Positions 241-55,136 of a stretch of 64,000 bases of DNA are shown here, piece after piece. The stretch is from the NCBI GenBank assembly GCA_963706365.1, contig OY970150.1:1468265-1532264 (forward strand), given 5' to 3'. This stretch comes from an uncultured Alphaproteobacteria bacterium (GTDB taxonomy: Bacteria > Pseudomonadota > Alphaproteobacteria > JAJTHO01 > G963706365). The notes beneath the pieces are model-generated. The model searched no databases and was not told the origin of the DNA. It saw only the letters and a list, made by a program, of their open reading frames with translations. Positions within the stretch are counted from its first letter, which is position 1. Every line of letters begins with the position of its first letter. The position numbers were made by a program, and so were the translations under genes.

Positions 241-295
241 CTTAGAGCTTGCCCCAAAATTCAACTTATACGTGGGTTTCCGCGCAAGCTCTTAG
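241..295 (+). repeat. MITE family B, internally deleted copy (both TIRs, about 55 bp)
   Basis: cttagagcttgccccaaaa joined directly to ttcaacttatacgtgggtttccgcgcaagctcttag. These are the left and right terminal inverted repeats of the 170 bp family B element seen full-length at 11374, 17458 and 54443. Confidence 0.7.
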
Positions 296-1675
296 CAAGG
301 CCATTGCTTTGTTAACGGTTTCTGCGTATTCCATTTCAGGGTCTGAATCGGCGACGACACCACCACCGGCCTGCACATACAATGTATTGTTTTTTATCAA
401 AGCCGTACGCAAGGCAATACACATATCCATTTCGCCCTGTATCGTGTTTTTCGAAGAAAAATAGCCAACACCACCGGCGTAAAAACTGCGTCCTTGCGGT
501 TCCAGTTCATGAATAATTTCCATGGCTCTAATTTTAGGGGCACCGGAGACTGTACCGGCAGGGAAACCTGCTAATAACGCATCCAGACAATCTTTATCAT
601 CGCGTAACTTGCCGCGCACCTGACTAACGATATGCATAACATGAGAATAGTACTCGACGGTAAAGCGATCCGTTACCTCTACTGTTTCCGGTTTTGAAAC
701 ACGGCCAATATCATTTCGGCCTAAATCCAGCAGCATTAAATGCTCGGCACGCTCTTTCGGGTCGTTTAAAAGTTCCTCGGCTAATTGTTGGTCTTGTTCT
801 ATGGTCGCACCGCGCGGGCGGGTGCCGGCAATGGGGCGCACATAAACCTGGCCTTCTTCAACTTTAACCAGTGTTTCAGGGCTGGAACCTACCAAAACAT
901 AATCATCAAATTTGATATGAAAAAGATAAGGGGAGGGATTTAAACGTCTTAAACGCCGGTAATAATCAAACGGTTTAATAGAAATAGATTGCTGAAAGCG
1001 TTGCGATGGAACAATCTGGAATGCATCGCCCGCAATAATATAATCCTTGCAGCGTTGCACCATTTCCAAAAACTGTGGTTTGCTAACATTCGATACCGGG
1101 TTAATTTTAGCCTGATAATCAATTTTATGATTAGAGAAAGCGTCTGCAAGTGGCTGCTTTAGTTGCATAGCAGCTTTTTCTAGGATTGCTTTCTGTTGCG
1201 CAGATTGCGCTGTTGCATAAACTGGTGCACACAGAAAAGTGACATCTTTAATGTGATCCATCACCGCAATTAATGTTGGCCGGAATAAACAGCAGTCGGG
1301 AATATCTAGCATGCTGTCTTTGGCATCCGGCAATGTTTCCAGCATTCTAATGGTATCAAAACCTAAATTACCAAAAATACCGGCGGCCATGCTTGGTAAT
1401 TCCTTTGGAAAATCAATCCGACTTTCTTTTATAAGGTTACGCAAACTTTTTAGTGGGGCATTCTCCTGTGCTTGTCCATTAATATAGGCAACCCCGTTTT
1501 TGCATGTCCAGATAACATCAGGCTGGCAACCTATTACAGAATATCGTCCGCGATAGCGGCCTTGTTCAACAGATTCCAGTAAAAAGCTATAAGGCTTATC
1601 TTGTGTTAATTTTAGATAGAGAGAAACAGGCGTTTCCGTGTCCATCACCAATTGTTCAAAATGAAACCCCGCCAT
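266..1675 (-). CDS. trpE: anthranilate synthase component I
   Basis: 470 aa ORF with chorismate-binding-enzyme motifs (LLESVEQGRYRGRYS..., GAPKIRAMEIIHELE, GGVGYFS). Start trimmed to MAGFHFEQ at 1675, 2 bp after the accD stop. The last 9 codons and the stop lie inside the MITE-B terminal inverted repeat. Confidence 0.85.
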   Translation of the reverse strand: MAGFHFEQLVMDTETPVSLYLKLTQDKPYSFLLESVEQGRYRGRYSVIGCQPDVIWTCKNGVAYINGQAQENAPLKSLRNLIKESRIDFPKELPSMAAGIFGNLGFDTIRMLETLPDAKDSMLDIPDCCLFRPTLIAVMDHIKDVTFLCAPVYATAQSAQQKAILEKAAMQLKQPLADAFSNHKIDYQAKINPVSNVSKPQFLEMVQRCKDYIIAGDAFQIVPSQRFQQSISIKPFDYYRRLRRLNPSPYLFHIKFDDYVLVGSSPETLVKVEEGQVYVRPIAGTRPRGATIEQDQQLAEELLNDPKERAEHLMLLDLGRNDIGRVSKPETVEVTDRFTVEYYSHVMHIVSQVRGKLRDDKDCLDALLAGFPAGTVSGAPKIRAMEIIHELEPQGRSFYAGGVGYFSSKNTIQGEMDMCIALRTALIKNNTLYVQAGGGVVADSDPEMEYAETVNKAMALLRACAETHV

Positions 1676-1677
1676 AG

Positions 1678-2535
1678 CTAGACAGCAGTCTTTTTCATTA
1701 AAATATTGGCACATTTTGCCAATTCTTTCGGAATATCTGTGCGTGTCACAATATAATCTATCATGCCGTGTTCCAGTAAATATTCGGCTGTTTGAAAGCC
1801 TTCGGGCAGTTGTTCTCGTATTGTTTCTTCAATAACACGTTTACCGGCAAAGCCAATGGTTGCCTGTGGTTCAGAAAAAGTAATATCGCCCAGCATGGCA
1901 AAACTTGCTGTAACACCGCCTGTGGTGGGGTCAGTTAACAAAACAAAATAGGGCAGGCCAGCTTCTTTTAATTTTTGTACTGCAATGGTGGTGCGTGCCA
2001 TTTGCATTAAAGATAAAATACTTTCCTGCATCCGCGCCCCGCCGGAAGCCGGGATAATAACGAAGGGTAATTTTGACTCTATCGCAATATCAACGGCTTT
2101 GACAATTCCTTCGCCCACGGCAACGCCCATGGAACCTGCCATAAATTCAAAGTTAAAAATGGCGGCAACCATAGGTGTTGCCTCCACATTACCTTTTGCA
2201 ATAATCAGGGCATCTTTTTCACCAGTTACTTTTTCCGCCTCTTTATGGCGTTCACTATATTTTTTCCGATCCTTAAATTTTAAGGGATCAATAGCAACTT
2301 TTGGCAAATCAAATTTTTCATGGCCATTAGAAAACAGCAGTTCCAGACGCTTGTTAACGTTAATCCGGCCATGATGATTACAATGATGACAAACATTATG
2401 ATTGGCGGCATAATCGCGATGAAACAACATTTCGCCACAACCCGGGCATTTATGCCAAAGGTTATCGGGCACGTTTTTTTTCGTATTATTGGTGTGCTTA
2501 ATTTTAGGACGTATTAGATTGGCAAGCCAGCTCAT
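1678..2535 (-). CDS. accD: acetyl-CoA carboxylase carboxyltransferase beta subunit
   Basis: N-terminal zinc ribbon CPGCGEMLF...CHHCNHH followed by a carboxyltransferase domain. 285 aa. Confidence 0.9.
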   Translation of the reverse strand: MSWLANLIRPKIKHTNNTKKNVPDNLWHKCPGCGEMLFHRDYAANHNVCHHCNHHGRINVNKRLELLFSNGHEKFDLPKVAIDPLKFKDRKKYSERHKEAEKVTGEKDALIIAKGNVEATPMVAAIFNFEFMAGSMGVAVGEGIVKAVDIAIESKLPFVIIPASGGARMQESILSLMQMARTTIAVQKLKEAGLPYFVLLTDPTTGGVTASFAMLGDITFSEPQATIGFAGKRVIEETIREQLPEGFQTAEYLLEHGMIDYIVTRTDIPKELAKCANILMKKTAV

Positions 2536-6780: not shown

Positions 6781-6909
6781 ATAGTGATTCCAAAATAAAA
6801 CCGTGAGGGGCTGCGAGCGGCGCAAAATTTCGCTTATGTATCAAGAATACACGGCGCTCAATTTTACTTGCTCTCGCCTCCACACGGATTTATTTTGGAA
6901 TCACTATAT
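6781..6909 (+). repeat. MITE family A (copy 2)
   Basis: atagtgattccaaaataaaaccgtgaggggctgcgagcggcgcaaaatttcgcttatgta...ccacacggatttattttggaatcactatat. Over 90 percent identical to copies 1 and 3. Confidence 0.85.
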
Positions 6910-10084: not shown

Positions 10085-11368
10085 GTGAAAAGGTATCTTC
10101 CACGCAGTTTATTTGGCCGTATTCTTATGATTATACTGTTGCCAATTATTTTGGTGCAGTTGCTTTCAACCTATTTTTTCCTCGAAAGGCATTGGGATAC
10201 TGTGTCTAGGCGACTAGCTATTTCACTGGCTAATGACATTGAACTGTTATTGAATCTTGAAGAAAATAACACAAAAGCGCAAAAAATACTGCAAGTACGC
10301 ATGCAACCTGTAGAAACAAATTGGCAAAACTTGCCATCTACAGCCAAGCCTTTTGGCTACCCGGCCTTAAAAAAAGAATTGAATAACCGGTTTCCCTACC
10401 CTTTTTATGTAACCAATGCCGGGGAAGATACTCTGGCTATTTATATCAAAAAGCCGGATCAAATTTGGCTATTTTCAGCCAATCACAAGCGCCTGTATAG
10501 TATTACTGTTTATCTTTACGTGCTAATTTCAACAATAATGGCGGTTATTTTAGCGACTATAGCCGTGCTATTTTCTCGTAATCAAATAAGGCCTATTCGT
10601 AGCCTGGCAAAAGCGATGATCCAGTTTGGTAAAACCAATCATGTGGTGCCTTTAAAGCCAAGTGGCGCAAGGGAAATACAGCTGGCTGCCACCGCTTTTA
10701 ATCGGATGCAGCAACGCATTAAAAACCAGGTAGAAGAGCGCACCTTTATGCTGGCGGGCATATCCCATGATTTGCGTACCCCTATTGCCCGCATGAAACT
10801 GGAATTAGCCATGCTACCGGATGAAACGGCTGGCAATTTCAAGCTAGATCTGAGAGAAATGGAGCATTTAATTAATAGCTATATTGAATTTGTAGAGGCG
10901 GGGCAGCATCATCAAAAAGAAGAGATTAGTTTGATAGATCTTTTAGAAGAGAGCATCCAGGATGTTCCTCAGTCAAACAGAGATAAAATACAGCTGCTTG
11001 CAAAGGAAAGTATTAGTGTTAAGCTGGACAGAAAAGCAACAAAGCGCTGTTTCTTAAACATACTATTAAACGCATGTCGCTATGGCAATAAAGTTGAAGT
11101 TTATGTTCAACGTAAAAAGAATTATTGTCGCATTTGTTTTCATAACGATGGTGAATCTATTCCTTTAACCGATCAGGAAAAGATATTTCAACCATTCTAC
11201 TCCGCTGATGGCAGTCATCAGCAAGGGGCTGGTTTAGGTTTGGCAATTTGCAAGGATATTATCGAACGGCATAATGGTATTATCTATGTTAATAATAATT
11301 TTCGCACGGATGGTGCAACAATTTGTATTGAACTGCCTCTAAAAGCTTACCCCAAAACCCACGTATAA
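10085..11368 (+). CDS. sensor histidine kinase, EnvZ-like (2 TM, HAMP, HisKA, HATPase)
   Basis: H-box GISHDLRTPIARM and G-box GAGLGLAICKDIIERHNG. No response regulator is adjacent. The last 5 codons and the stop (PKTHV*) lie in a solo MITE-B-type terminal inverted repeat. Confidence 0.8.
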   Translation: MKRYLPRSLFGRILMIILLPIILVQLLSTYFFLERHWDTVSRRLAISLANDIELLLNLEENNTKAQKILQVRMQPVETNWQNLPSTAKPFGYPALKKELNNRFPYPFYVTNAGEDTLAIYIKKPDQIWLFSANHKRLYSITVYLYVLISTIMAVILATIAVLFSRNQIRPIRSLAKAMIQFGKTNHVVPLKPSGAREIQLAATAFNRMQQRIKNQVEERTFMLAGISHDLRTPIARMKLELAMLPDETAGNFKLDLREMEHLINSYIEFVEAGQHHQKEEISLIDLLEESIQDVPQSNRDKIQLLAKESISVKLDRKATKRCFLNILLNACRYGNKVEVYVQRKKNYCRICFHNDGESIPLTDQEKIFQPFYSADGSHQQGAGLGLAICKDIIERHNGIIYVNNNFRTDGATICIELPLKAYPKTHV

Positions 11369-11373
11369 GTTGT

Positions 11374-11540
11374 AAGAGTTTACACCAAAACCCACGCAAA
11401 AGTTGAATTTTGTCTTTTTCGCTGCAAATTCCTTTGAAAAAGATACGAAATAGCCCGCTAGTCCGCCCTTTCCCAAAGAAATTTTCACAGAAAAATACTT
11501 CTTTCAACTTATACGTGGGTTTCCGCGTAAGCTCTAAAGA
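11374..11540 (+). repeat. MITE family B (copy 2), preceded by a solo TIR at 11343-11373
   Basis: taagagtttacaccaaaacccacgcaaaagttgaatttt ... ttcaacttatacgtgggtttccgcgtaagctctaaaga. It fills the convergent hisK/pyrB intergenic region. Confidence 0.8.
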
Positions 11541-17252: not shown

Positions 17253-17264
17253 GTGACTGGTTTT

Positions 17265-17393
17265 ATAGTGCTTCCAAAATAAAACCGTGAGGGGCTGCGA
17301 GCGGCGCAAAATTTCGCTTATGTATGAAGAATACACTGCGCTCAATTTTACTTGCTCTCGCCTCCACACGGATTTATTTTGGAATCACTATAT
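17265..17393 (+). repeat. MITE family A (copy 3)
   Basis: Immediately 3' of secA. Near-identical to copy 2. Confidence 0.85.
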
Positions 17394-17457: not shown

Positions 17458-17623
17458 CTAAGAGCTTACTCCAGAACCCACGCACAAGTTGAATTTTGTC
17501 TTTTCGCTGCAAATTCCTTTGAAAAAGATGCGAAATAGCCCACTATTCCGCCCTTTCCCAAAGAAATTTTCGCAGAAAAATACTTCTTTAAGCTTATATA
17601 TGGGGTTCCGTGCAAGTTCTAGG
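17458..17623 (+). repeat. MITE family B (copy 3, degenerate right TIR)
   Basis: cctaagagcttactccagaacccacgcacaagttgaatttt ... ttaagcttatatatggggttccgtgcaagttcta. Confidence 0.75.
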
Positions 17624-17783
17624 CGTTGTTGAAATAAGGATGAAAAGTATATTTCCAGTCTTTTCGCCCCTAAAATAGGCTTTAAATAACCCAGCTAATA
17701 TATTAGCCGAGTTATTTAAAGCCTATTTTAGGAACAAAAATCCATAAAAATCTATTTTTTTCCCTCTTATCTCAACAACGCCT
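17621..17783. repeat. palindromic element, family C
   Basis: 18-bp TIRs aggcgttgttgaaataag / cttatctcaacaacgcct. Inside is a perfect 22-bp stem (17669-17690 pairs with 17711-17732). Confidence 0.55.
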
Positions 17784-17801
17784 AAGTAAAATGAACAGCT
17801 A

Positions 17802-47122: not shown

Positions 47123-49670
<2,548 letters not shown>

Positions 49671-49672
<2 letters not shown>

Positions 49673-49712
49673 GAGCTTGCCTCAAAACCCACGCACAAGT
49701 TGAATTTCGTAT
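49671..49712 (+). repeat. MITE family B left-end fragment
   Basis: aagagcttgcctcaaaacccacgcacaagttgaatttcgtattt. Confidence 0.6.
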
Positions 49713-49715
49713 TTT

Positions 49716-49843
49716 ATAGTGATTCCAAAATAAATCCGTGTGAAGGCGAGAGCAAGCAAAATTGAGCGCAATGTATTCTTCATGCATAAGCGAAATTTTG
49801 CGCCCCTCGCAGCCCCTCACGGTTTTATTTCGGAATCACTATA
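49716..49843 (-). repeat. MITE family A (copy 4, inverted, more divergent)
   Basis: atagtgattccaaaataaatccgtgtgaaggcgagagcaag...cctcacggttttatttcggaatcactata. Confidence 0.8.
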
Positions 49844-51745: not shown

Positions 51746-51830
<85 letters not shown>

Positions 51831-51909
51831 TGGTGGTTATGCAATTTATGCCTTTATTTTGGCTTAAATCGCATAACCATCACCTTGGAACGAATTAAAA
51901 AGTAGCGCT

Positions 51910-53400
51910 ATGCAAGTTGTTGAAAAATCAAAAGATGGTCTAAAGACTGAGTACACGATCACCATTCCGGTGGAAAAACTGAAAGAGCAACGTCTAGAGC
52001 GACTTAGCGAAATTTCTAAAACTATTAAAGTTGATGGCTTTCGACCTGGTAAAGTGCCGCCTCAATTGATTGAGAAACGCTATGGCGATTCTATAAAAGG
52101 TGAAATTATCCAAAAGGCCCTAGAGGGCAGCATTGCCCAAGTGATTCAGGACAATAAAATTCGCCCGGCTGTACAGCCTAAAATGACGAATTCTAATTTA
52201 GAAGCGCACAACGATAATGATCCTATTATTTTTGACTTAGAAATAGAAGCTTTGCCAGAAATTCCAGAAGTTGATCTGGATTCGATTGAAATTGAGTTTC
52301 TGCAAGTTGAAGTGACAGACGAGGATATTGATGCCGGTATGGAAATGATGAAAGATTCATTTCAAGAATACCAGCCTTTGAAAAGAAAGCGCGCTGTTAA
52401 AATTGATGATGAAGTAACATTTGATTTTTCCGGATCTGTAGATGGTAAAAAATTTGAGGGTGGTACAGCAGAAGATGCGAAACTAATCATTGGCTCTGGT
52501 CAGTTCATTCCTGGTTTTGAAGATCAAATAGTTGGCAAGAAAATCGATGAAGCCTTCGATGTTACAGTCACCTTCCCAGAAAACTATGGCGAGAAAACCT
52601 TAGCCGGTAAAGAAGCGGTTTTTGCTTGTACAATTCATGACATTCAAGAGCCTGCGCCTTTTGAATTAAATGACGAAGTAGCTATTAAAGCCGGTGCGGA
52701 AAGTGTTGACGACTTAAAAGCAAAATTTAAAAAAGCTGCTAAGGATCGTAAAGCGCAAGAAATTCAGCCTTGGAATAAGAAAAATCTACTGGATGTTTTA
52801 GACGATAAAGTACAAATAGACTTACCGCCTAGCTTAGTTGACGAAGAATTTAAGATTATTCAAGCCGAAGATGCTAAAAGCGAATCTGAAAATATTGATG
52901 AAAAAGAGTTGCGTAGTTTAGCTGAGCGCCGTGTAAAACTTGGCTTAGTTGTTGCTGATCTTGGTATGAAAAACAATGTGCATGTAGATGACGAAGAAGT
53001 TCGTGCTACTATTCTAGATCAAGCTTTTCAGATGCCAGAAGCACAGCGTATGCAGTTTTTACAGTTTTTCAGTGAAAACCCACAAATGATCGAGCGTGTA
53101 AAAGCCCCACTTTTTGAAGAAAAAGTGATTGGCTTTTTGTTAGACAAAGTTAAAAAAACAAATAAGGTTATTACCTCTGAAGAGTTTGAAAAGCTTGCTA
53201 ATGAAGATGAGGCGGAATCAACCGCTGACAGTAGTAAGCCCGCTGAAAAACCCAAGAAAAAAGAAACGGCTGCGAAAAAACCTACTGCTGCAAAGAAGCC
53301 TGCCGCTGCTAAGAAAGCGACAGATACTCCTAAAAAAGCTAAAGCTGATGATTCTCCTAAGGCCTCAAAAAGTAAAAAGACCGATACCGTGAAGTCATAG
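51910..53400 (+). CDS. tig: trigger factor with a Lys/Ala-rich histone-H1-like C-terminal tail
   Basis: Ribosome-binding, PPIase and C-terminal chaperone domains. An extra ~60-aa tail with AKKP-type repeats. Confidence 0.9.
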   Translation: MQVVEKSKDGLKTEYTITIPVEKLKEQRLERLSEISKTIKVDGFRPGKVPPQLIEKRYGDSIKGEIIQKALEGSIAQVIQDNKIRPAVQPKMTNSNLEAHNDNDPIIFDLEIEALPEIPEVDLDSIEIEFLQVEVTDEDIDAGMEMMKDSFQEYQPLKRKRAVKIDDEVTFDFSGSVDGKKFEGGTAEDAKLIIGSGQFIPGFEDQIVGKKIDEAFDVTVTFPENYGEKTLAGKEAVFACTIHDIQEPAPFELNDEVAIKAGAESVDDLKAKFKKAAKDRKAQEIQPWNKKNLLDVLDDKVQIDLPPSLVDEEFKIIQAEDAKSESENIDEKELRSLAERRVKLGLVVADLGMKNNVHVDDEEVRATILDQAFQMPEAQRMQFLQFFSENPQMIERVKAPLFEEKVIGFLLDKVKKTNKVITSEEFEKLANEDEAESTADSSKPAEKPKKKETAAKKPTAAKKPAAAKKATDTPKKAKADDSPKASKSKKTDTVKS

Positions 53401-53543
53401 CCTGATTTAGAGCTAGGTGACTGGTTCTAACTATACTGGCTTATATTTTGGAGGAATAGGTTCCAGCCGGGGCTGACAACTATTTTGTCTTCTTTAGAGG
53501 TTCTTATGCTTTATAAAAGGCTCTAAGAGCTTACGCCAAAACC

Positions 53544-53909
53544 CTAAGTAGAATATAATTTCAGAATTCGCTTAGACAGGAGGTTAATGTCGGCAATAAA
53601 GAGTCTAGAGCGGGAGGTATCTGGATTATGTTCGTAATCTTTGGAGAGGCGTCTTTGCCAGTTGATCCAGCCGAAGAAGCGTTCGACAATCCATCGTTTT
53701 GGTATAACAATAAACTTTTTGCTATCAGGGCGTTTGACGACTATCAGGCGTTTCCCCCGGCTTTTGCGGTAGAACCATGTTTGCAGTTTGCCGCTATAGG
53801 CACCATCGGCCAAAACAGCCTGTAACCGGGGCTGTTTGTACAATTCTGCTAGTAGCGGTTTGGCGCCGTCCCTGTCTTGAACGCCAGCGCTATGCACGCT
53901 TGCCGCCAT
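53544..53909 (-). CDS. IS5-family transposase OrfB (DDE region)
   Basis: LADGAYSG ... ERFFGWINWQRRLSKDYE. Confidence 0.75.
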   Translation of the reverse strand: MAASVHSAGVQDRDGAKPLLAELYKQPRLQAVLADGAYSGKLQTWFYRKSRGKRLIVVKRPDSKKFIVIPKRWIVERFFGWINWQRRLSKDYEHNPDTSRSRLFIADINLLSKRILKLYST

Positions 53910-53932
53910 CAGATGGCCGGTGATATCAACAA

Positions 53933-54322
53933 CTATATGGCGTTTTCGACCCTTAGTTTTCTTGCCAGCATCATACCCGCGCGCCCCCCTTTTTGCACCG
54001 TCTTGACAGACTGTGCATCAATTATCCCCAGTGACGGTTCCTCTTCCCGGCCTTCCAGCCGCCGCAACTGCCTGTGCAGCTTTTCCTGTATACGTTCAAA
54101 CAAGCCATTGTCACGCCACTCATAGAAAAAATGCCGCACCACCGCTTCCGGCACCAAATCATTCGGCAGCATATCCCACTGACACCCCGTGCGCTGCTGA
54201 TAACGTATAGCGTTCATTATCTCTCGATTTGAATATATTTTGCGACGCCCCGTCTTATATACCGGAAAAGCATGCGCGATCAGAGCCCACTCCTCATCTG
54301 TTAAATCTGTTCTATACGACAT
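53933..54322 (-). CDS. IS5-family transposase OrfA
   Basis: MSYRTDLTDEEWALIAHAFP...GCQWDMLPNDL. This is the characteristic IS5/IS427 N-terminal domain. Confidence 0.75.
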   Translation of the reverse strand: MSYRTDLTDEEWALIAHAFPVYKTGRRKIYSNREIMNAIRYQQRTGCQWDMLPNDLVPEAVVRHFFYEWRDNGLFERIQEKLHRQLRRLEGREEEPSLGIIDAQSVKTVQKGGRAGMMLARKLRVENAI

Positions 54323-54442
54323 CGTCTACTCCCAGTTATATGTTATCTTACAACATCTTATAAAATATCTCACACAGCCATACTATAATCTATATGCGAT
54401 GTATTCTTCCTTCTTATTCGCTTCTTAGTTTTGGCGTAAGCT

Positions 54443-54610
54443 CTAAGAGCTTGCCCCAAAACCCACGCACAAGTTGAATTTTGTCTTTTTCACTGCAAAT
54501 TCCTTTGAAAAGATGCGAAATAGCCCGCTATTACGCCCTTTCCCAAAGAAATTTTCGCAGAAAAATACTTCTTTCAACTTATACGTGGGTTTCCGCGCAA
54601 GCTCTAAAGA
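54443..54610 (+). repeat. MITE family B (copy 4, reference full-length)
   Basis: ctaagagcttgccccaaaacccacgcacaagttgaatttt...ttcaacttatacgtgggtttccgcgcaagctctaaaga. It directly abuts the IS5 element's right end. Confidence 0.85.
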
Positions 54611-54662
54611 ATAGTACAACAAAATATTTACAAGCAATTGACGGTGCCATTAATAAAATTAA

Positions 54663-54745
54663 TGGTACTCGAGGCGAGACTCGAACTCGCACGACCGAAG
54701 TCATCAGATTTTGAGTCTGACGTGTCTACCATTCCACCACTCGAG
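54663..54745 (-). tRNA. tRNA-Leu (anticodon CAA)
   Basis: On the minus strand: ctcgagtggtggaatggtagacacg, then the anticodon stem-loop tcaga ctCAAaa tctga, a long variable arm, then gttcgagtctcgcctcgagtacca. Confidence 0.8.
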
Positions 54746-54812
54746 CAATTGTTTGTTGGGTATAATCTAAAAATTTGGAAAGCTCAATGGCTATCAGCAG
54801 TGTTAAAGCAAT

Positions 54813-55136
54813 TTAATCTACATCCTGTTGAGCGTAGAAATTATTGTTACTATTAGCGCGACGAAGAGGGTTGCCAGACATTACCGCTGTTTGTGGAACA
54901 TCTTGTGTTACCTCTGCATTAAACGTGCTTGCTTCTAGAATGGCAATTCTTTCTTTTAGTTGTTGATTTTCAAGGGATAGAGAATGAACAGCGTTTTGAT
55001 TTTTATTATTGCAAGCCATTTCTGTGGATACGGCACCATCGGCATAGCCCTGGTGATACCAGTCGTTATAAGCCATGGCAGGGGTTGTAACAGCGATTGC
55101 TGTTGTTACAAAAAATAGTCTAAAAATTGTTTTCAT
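54813..55136 (-). CDS. small secreted hypothetical protein (signal peptide)
   Basis: MKTIFRLFFVTTAIAVTTPAMA. 107 aa. Confidence 0.4.
   Translation of the reverse strand: MKTIFRLFFVTTAIAVTTPAMAYNDWYHQGYADGAVSTEMACNNKNQNAVHSLSLENQQLKERIAILEASTFNAEVTQDVPQTAVMSGNPLRRANSNNNFYAQQDVD

Follow-up and report, generated by a model that had tools for sequence, protein, structure and literature searches.

In a 64-kb stretch of the chromosome of an uncultured alphaproteobacterium (assembly GCA_963706365.1, contig OY970150.1, positions 1,468,265 to 1,532,264; below we call it the window, which amounts to 3.4% of the 1.87-Mb genome), an insertion sequence (IS) of 917 bp lies next to one copy of a dispersed palindromic repeat of 158 bp. 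We refer to this repeat family as MITE-B (MITE stands for miniature inverted-repeat transposable element). In our opinion MITE-B is probably a type II non-autonomous element that is moved in trans, or formerly was, by a DDE transposase of the IS5 lineage to which the adjacent IS belongs. It would then not be a deletion derivative of that IS, and its amplification would be the older event. That MITE-B was mobilized in trans, and by which IS, we infer from common termini, common target-site duplications and a common target preference.

The ends of the two elements are nearly the same. The IS (53527..54443, transposase on the minus strand) has the ends GAGC...GCTC. It starts with GAGCTTACGCCAAAAC at 53527, and its last 16 bp are the perfect inverse of this sequence. 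Its terminal repeat on the transposase-downstream side, IRR (53527..53544, plus strand), reads GAGCTTACGCCAAAACCC, and the first 16 bp of it are a perfect inverted repeat of 54428-54443; the repeat on the transposase-upstream side, IRL (54426..54443, minus strand), reads GAGCTTACGCCAAAACTA. Over 18 bases these two IS ends agree at 16 positions. The window-left end of the IS agrees with the left end of MITE-B at 16/18 and with its right end at 15/18, which is as good as the agreement between the two ends of the IS itself; its other end scores 14/18 and 13/18. A terminal match of at least 16/18 has a chance probability of 2e-8. Furthermore, the consensus of six MITE-B left ends, GAGCTTRCNCCAAAACCC, has the IS base at every non-degenerate position. 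The original prediction, made from this DNA alone, had put the identity of the terminal inverted repeats (TIRs) at 20 of 22 positions. Both 22-mers are indeed there and differ at two positions (each has seven matches in the window at up to three mismatches and none in 100 shuffles), but their first four bases, CTAA, consist of a C from the flank and of the TAA duplication. The elements themselves start at GAGC, and the true values are the 16/18 and 15/18 given above.

Beyond base 18 the resemblance stops. When the subterminal 60 nt, or the interiors, are aligned locally, the scores are no better than for shuffles (p 0.3-0.8), and blastn of the IS against MITE-B returns the 18-bp ends only. Similarity that extends past the TIRs, as in a type I MITE, is thus absent. 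A type II MITE is one whose likeness to an IS is confined to the terminal repeats (PMC10969869). Since the similarity is confined to the 18-bp ends, MITE-B is a type II MITE and not a recognizable deletion derivative. The proposal that it is a miniature derivative of the resident IS, to be judged by comparing the MITE interior with the subterminal regions of the IS, is therefore not supported.

The footprints of the two elements agree as well. The IS leaves a 3-bp duplication of the form T-N-A, which is matched in four of six copies, with T-N-A on both sides in the other two. Of the MITE-B copies, two have TAA/TAA, one has TTA/TTA and one has TAA/TAG. For both elements the flanks are always of the T-N-A form, and both favor the target CTC-TWA / TWA-GAG. 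CTC or GAG borders the duplication at 5/9 independent sites, against an expectation of about 3% for each site (P = 3e-6). TA or 3-bp duplications had been suggested as something to look for; the 3-bp T-N-A type was found, and it is compatible with the IS5 family. Neither unrelated TIRs nor duplications foreign to that family, either of which was to count against the original prediction, were encountered.

At the locus itself (53300-54900) the order is TAA-IS-TAA-MITE-TAA. One TAA (53524..53526) precedes the IS; a second (54444..54446) is common to both elements, being the second duplication copy of the IS and the first of MITE-B; the full MITE-B copy of 158 bp follows (54447..54604, plus strand, from GAGCTTGCCCC to GCGCAAGCTC), and a third TAA (54605..54607) closes the array. 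The IS and MITE-B taken as a unit (53527-54604) are therefore themselves bounded by TAA/TAA. The statement that a full MITE-B copy abuts the right end of the IS holds once the single common TAA between them is allowed for, with the reservation that right applies to window coordinates only; by IS convention MITE-B adjoins IRL.

A simple model would account for this arrangement. The transposase would recognize termini of about 18 bp, with the consensus given above, and would cut there. Insertion would take place at a T-N-A trinucleotide, preferably in the context CTC-TWA or TWA-GAG, with duplication of the 3 bp. An inserted end together with its duplication reads GCTC-TAA or TAA-GAGC. Hence each insertion would recreate the favored target, and elements would come to stand end to end via one TAA. 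This would explain the two abutments in the window, that of IS and MITE-B at 54444 and that of a solo end and MITE-B at 11373. The order of arrival at 54444 is unreadable, as insertion of the IS into the flank of the MITE, insertion of the MITE into the flank of the IS and arrival of the pair as a unit would all give the same sequence.

MITE-B copies were located by blastn and by nhmmer with a model of the full copies, with results that agree; all counts refer to the window. Three copies are full and three are partial, all on the plus strand. Besides the copy next to the IS, full copies are found at 11376-11534 (159 bp; TAA 11373-11375 and TAA 11535-11537) and 17462-17619 (158 bp; TAA 17459-17461 and TAG 17620-17622). 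The partial copies are an internally deleted one of 47 bp at 245-291 (15 nt of left end plus 32 nt of right end; TTA 242-244 and TTA 292-294), a left-end fragment of 45 bp at 49673-49717, preceded by TAA 49670-49672, and a solo end of 30 bp at 11343-11372, with TAA 11340-11342 on its left and, on its right, the TAA 11373-11375 that it has in common with the full copy at 11376. The fragment and the solo end were correctly described in the original prediction (as 49671 and 11343). Its count of at least four copies of 170 bp has to be lowered to three full copies of 158-159 bp, as the copy placed at 241 is the 47-bp remnant.

Over its whole length MITE-B is an imperfect palindrome; its two arms, of 79 nt each, are 73% complementary, and its ends read GAGCTTGC.../...GCAAGCTC. 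The copy at 54447-54604 folds as DNA into a single long hairpin (-37.3 kcal/mol, z = -8.6), and a second copy folded as RNA gives -48.8 kcal/mol (z = -7.9). Covariation in the three full copies amounts to a single compensatory pair, with several pairs broken, and so small a number of copies says nothing about selection on the hairpin. The open reading frames (ORFs) of MITE-B have no Pfam match, and among 5.8 billion proteins not one was matched by the translations, or by a profile, of the frames open in the copies. At the gathering score Rfam gives no match, with microRNA-hairpin models only below threshold, and there is none in PLSDB. What is found is what characterizes prokaryotic MITEs: a short, non-coding sequence with TIRs and target duplications, present in dispersed copies, whose termini are common to an autonomous IS in the same genome. 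The merged IS/MITE terminal pattern gave one chance match in 185,579 GTDB species genomes (a metagenome-assembled genome of Planctomycetota), the MITE-B subterminal pattern gave three chance matches in JGI metagenomes (on contigs of 62% GC), and a looser 16-mer gave single chance-like matches only in viral contigs.

The neighbor was correctly recognized as an IS5-family element. Its transposase is encoded in two frames on the minus strand: orfA (53933..54322, 129 amino acids, Pfam DUF4096) is the N-terminal part, and orfB, as listed, has 121 amino acids (53544..53909, DDE_Tnp_1), with the DDE reading frame open from about 54000. The run CAAAAAGGGGGGC (53983..53995, minus strand) joins orfA to the DDE frame via a -1 shift; this A5G6 shift sequence at 53983-53995 can also be written CAAAAAGGGGGG, and it is identical in all six copies of the IS. 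The fused product of 259 amino acids scores 201.3 bits over residues 3-244 against NCBIfam NF033580 (transpos_IS5_3, "IS5 family transposase"; cutoff 110 bits). In an alignment with nine relatives it keeps 57 of 57 invariant columns, D102, D173 and E214 among them. The DDE triad is intact. Thus a curated profile above its cutoff, the conserved D/D/E residues and TIRs with a short target duplication all place the 917-bp element in the IS5 family. All nine aligned relatives have a single ORF, and one extra G in the A5G6 run would restore a single ORF here. The interruption may stem from recoding, from a shared mutation or from a homopolymer error. Presumably the shift is bypassed, since the same two-frame form occurs at six different sites and must have transposed in that form. 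The closest of the 5.8 billion proteins, a cyanobacterial one, has 62% identity, so that the element would count as a new IS. The closest named family in PLSDB is ISRl2 (46% amino acid identity), where nucleotide matches to the IS are weak only; a scan of viral-contig proteins with the transposase returned just a 31% partial match.

Five further copies of the IS were obtained by exact-protein look-ups from one ENA metagenome assembly (ERZ25039505). One of them (L002) belongs to a contig of 14.8 kb that also carries genes for RPA, a resolvase and Fic. At least four (L111-L113) are on a 122.8-kb contig, contig_19487, with Rep3, ParA/ParB and toxin-antitoxin genes and many other ISs. The latter contig is plasmid-like and packed with IS3-family (rve) and Transposase_mut elements and with giant proteins that contain TPS domains. 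Contig names of this form may point to a long-read assembler, which bears on the option of a homopolymer error. Each copy is 917 bp long, has 1-2 base differences to the window copy and carries the same slip run. The flanks are TAA/TAA in the window, TTA/TTA in L002 and L113b, and TGA/TGA in L111; they are unmatched, TTA/TAA, in L112 (9467-10383) and L113a (L113 9467-10383), which suggests recombination or inversion between IS copies. Two relatives have related features. L114 (51% amino acid identity) has GAGCGGGCGCGGAAAG ends, again with GAGC, and C-TAA...TAA-G flanks, and the ISRl2-like L110 (46%) has GAGCCTGACC ends, with GAG, and TCA/TCA flanks. In the approximately 140 kb examined, the sole other IS5-family ORF is a truncated, unrelated DUF4096 ORF in L113.

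Several observations weigh against the interpretation that we prefer. The similarity to the IS is limited to 18 bp, and common descent of MITE-B from it is therefore unproven. The terminal match is in part a property of the whole clade: by hand count, the relative with 51% identity matches the MITE-B ends at 10/18 and 13/18, the latter at the right end. Identity among the full MITE-B copies is 88-93%, but among the six IS copies it is 99.8-99.9% (at most 2 of 917 bases), and the window contains no near-identical pairs of MITE-B copies such as current mobilization would give. About 76 kb of IS-bearing plasmid-like contigs have no MITE-B at all, where about seven copies would be expected at the density of the window (Poisson P ~8e-4), an absence qualified by the fact that a shared host of these contigs and the window chromosome is not proven; apart from the IS, contigs and window have no repeat in common. 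Lastly, the transposase needs a non-canonical -1 shift on A5G6, unlike its single-ORF relatives, and it could be crippled. We should also keep in mind that a common TIR shows a common transposase lineage, not parentage or current activity.

The contrast in divergence and the absence of MITE-B from the IS-rich contigs imply that the spread of MITE-B predates the current IS burst. The simplest reading would be that MITE-B was amplified earlier, by this IS lineage or by a predecessor, and that the present burst of the IS is recent and plasmid-linked. The mobilizer of MITE-B is then this IS lineage, not demonstrably this IS. Accordingly, the claim that the IS transposase mobilizes MITE-B is upheld for the lineage by the ends, the T-N-A duplication and the target, and it is doubtful for this particular IS in view of the divergence and of the 76 kb that lack MITE-B.

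Other explanations have to be considered. One is that another element of this IS clade, since lost or sitting at some other place in the genome, spread MITE-B. In that case the IS in the window would be a recent plasmid-borne arrival, which came to lie next to a MITE-B copy only because such an end plus TAA makes up its favorite target, CTC-TAA-GAG, and which never moved MITE-B. The contrast in copy divergence would be expected on such grounds, five of the six IS copies are on plasmid-like contigs with Rep3/ParAB or RPA genes and with toxin-antitoxin genes, the terminal sequence is partly conserved across the clade, and a MITE-B end fits the target preference of the IS. We consider this possible, though somewhat doubtful. 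Among the elements seen, the resident IS is still clearly the best terminal match to MITE-B (15-16/18; the relative with 51% identity reaches 10-13/18 by hand count), the approximately 140 kb examined yielded no further IS5-family element that has such ends, and a transposase that tolerates a difference between its own ends at 2 of 18 positions would plausibly accept those of MITE-B. Another suggestion, that internal deletion of the resident IS gave rise to MITE-B and that this IS mobilizes it at present, can appeal to the 16/18 termini, the same duplication and the physical adjacency of the two elements. It seems improbable to us, as subterminal and interior alignments look like those of shuffles, MITE-B copies diverge by 7-12% compared to at most 0.2% for the IS, the GC content of MITE-B is 40-42% versus 47.5% in the IS (42.7% in the window), and MITE-B is missing from the IS-rich plasmid-like contigs.

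It could also be argued that MITE-B is no transposon at all and is a REP-like structural or regulatory palindrome, whose likeness to the IS at the ends is accidental or due to its being a target of the IS. The long hairpin and the location at gene 3' ends are in keeping with such a role. This is hardly credible when set against defined termini with 3-bp duplications at four loci, insertions into the 3' ends of coding sequences and the low chance probability of the terminal match; the three copies offer no covariation that would point to selection on structure, and Rfam has no model that matches above threshold.

One may speculate further. The IS/MITE system might be self-attracting, growing by end-to-end accretion; the IS and MITE-B together might be movable as a hybrid with one IS end and one MITE end; and the C-termini that MITE-B supplies in a fixed frame might be tolerated or even exploited as protein tails. 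We offer this combination as a rather unlikely suggestion.

The material for the last part of it comes from the genes next to MITE-B. The remnant at 245-291 supplies the last eight codons and the stop of trpE (266-1714, minus strand; tail ...LLRACAETHV-stop), and the solo end at 11343-11372 supplies the last eight codons and the stop of an EnvZ-like kinase gene (10085-11368; tail ...LKAYPKTHV-stop). The genes are unrelated, and the two tails are read in the same frame (...THV-stop). The target TAA of the left-end fragment (49670-49672) is the stop codon of gyrB. The IS and MITE-B pair is flanked by the trigger factor gene (51910-53400) and by a minus-strand tRNA-Leu (54663-54746), and a scan of the region for promoters and terminators gave counts no higher than in shuffles. 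The trigger factor is 496 amino acids long owing to a C-terminal tail of about 60 residues in which Lys, Ala and Pro abound (...KKPTAAKKPAAAKKATDTPKKAK...). The junction of tig and the IS is reproduced exactly by an independent assembly, L001 (Logan ERR12040027, 1750 bp, equal to window 51802-53551). L001 ends 25 bp inside the IS, as it should if that sample contains the IS in several copies.

MITE-B is not the only palindromic repeat here. A second family, family A, of about 130 bp, occurs at 91-220, 6781-6909, 17264-17393 and 49715-49843. Its copies are 93-97% identical, have ends (TATAGTGATTCC...) unrelated to the IS and lie within 100 bp of MITE-B at three loci. One of them cuts off the MITE-B fragment from about 49715, and family A was therefore active after MITE-B. 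Directly after the MITE-B copy at 17462-17619 there is a self-complementary sequence of 165 bp (77%) at 17620-17784, so the spacer downstream of secA consists of three different nested hairpin elements (family A 17264-17393, MITE-B and 17620-17784).

What is gained is a clean and internally consistent pairing of an IS with a MITE, by termini, duplication and extended target, in an alphaproteobacterium with no close sequenced relative: the best non-self match of its GyrB is 69% identical, and the named matches are mostly Rhodospirillales-type alphaproteobacteria. A new IS is documented; the pairing with MITE-B opens no new question. For annotation, MITE-B explains odd C-terminal extensions (trpE, the sensor kinase) and intergenic hairpins downstream of secA, gyrB and tig.

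We know of comparable systems for both elements. The IS resembles the IS1031/ISRl2-like and IS427-like groups (NF033580; PMC2516522, PMC3281130) in its length of about 0.9 kb, its GAG... termini and its DUF4096 plus DDE_Tnp_1 domains. Its subgroup traits are mixed. A 3-nt target and GAG ends are traits of the IS1031 group (PMC2516522), which has a single ORF; the IS shares the 3-nt target duplication with this group, and its ends and its nearest named relative, ISRl2, fit there as well. The IS427 group has two ORFs with a frameshift and mostly a 2-bp duplication (PMC3281130), and it is with this group that the IS shares the two-frame transposase with a -1 shift, unlike the close relatives examined.

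For MITE-B, the nearest parallels are type II MITEs with IS5-family partners, namely BrickBuilt, MITE293 and MITE700 of Porphyromonas gingivalis with ISPg1/3/4/9, and the ATR of Neisseria with ISNme1 (PMC4596501). Like them, MITE-B is short, non-coding, multi-copy and mostly intergenic, with many truncated copies, and its similarity to the resident IS5-family IS is limited to the TIRs (identical or with 1-2 nt of difference in those genera). Unlike theirs, which are of the GAGACCTTTGCA type with different and variable duplications, its termini go with a uniform 3-bp T-N-A duplication, and in place of the internal minisatellite of BrickBuilt it is a plain 158-bp palindrome. The Chunjie MITE of Geobacter was considered as a comparator on account of supposed TAA duplications and dropped, since the literature gives 9-bp repeats for it. 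With MITEs of the Correia, ERIC, RUP and Coxiella QMITE types (PMC3184786, PMC5896051, PMC10969869) MITE-B has in common the hairpin, a size in the range of about 100-200 bp, the TIRs and the short duplications; in addition, size variants are numerous, solo ends occur, and insertions at the 3' ends of genes change the C-termini of proteins (PMC10969869, PMC5896051). Its sequence is unrelated to theirs and the duplications differ (7-9 bp for QMITE2, PMC10969869); for most of these elements the partner transposase is unknown or of another family. Seen against these systems, both the IS and the MITE family in the window are new but of a familiar type, with nothing new in kind.

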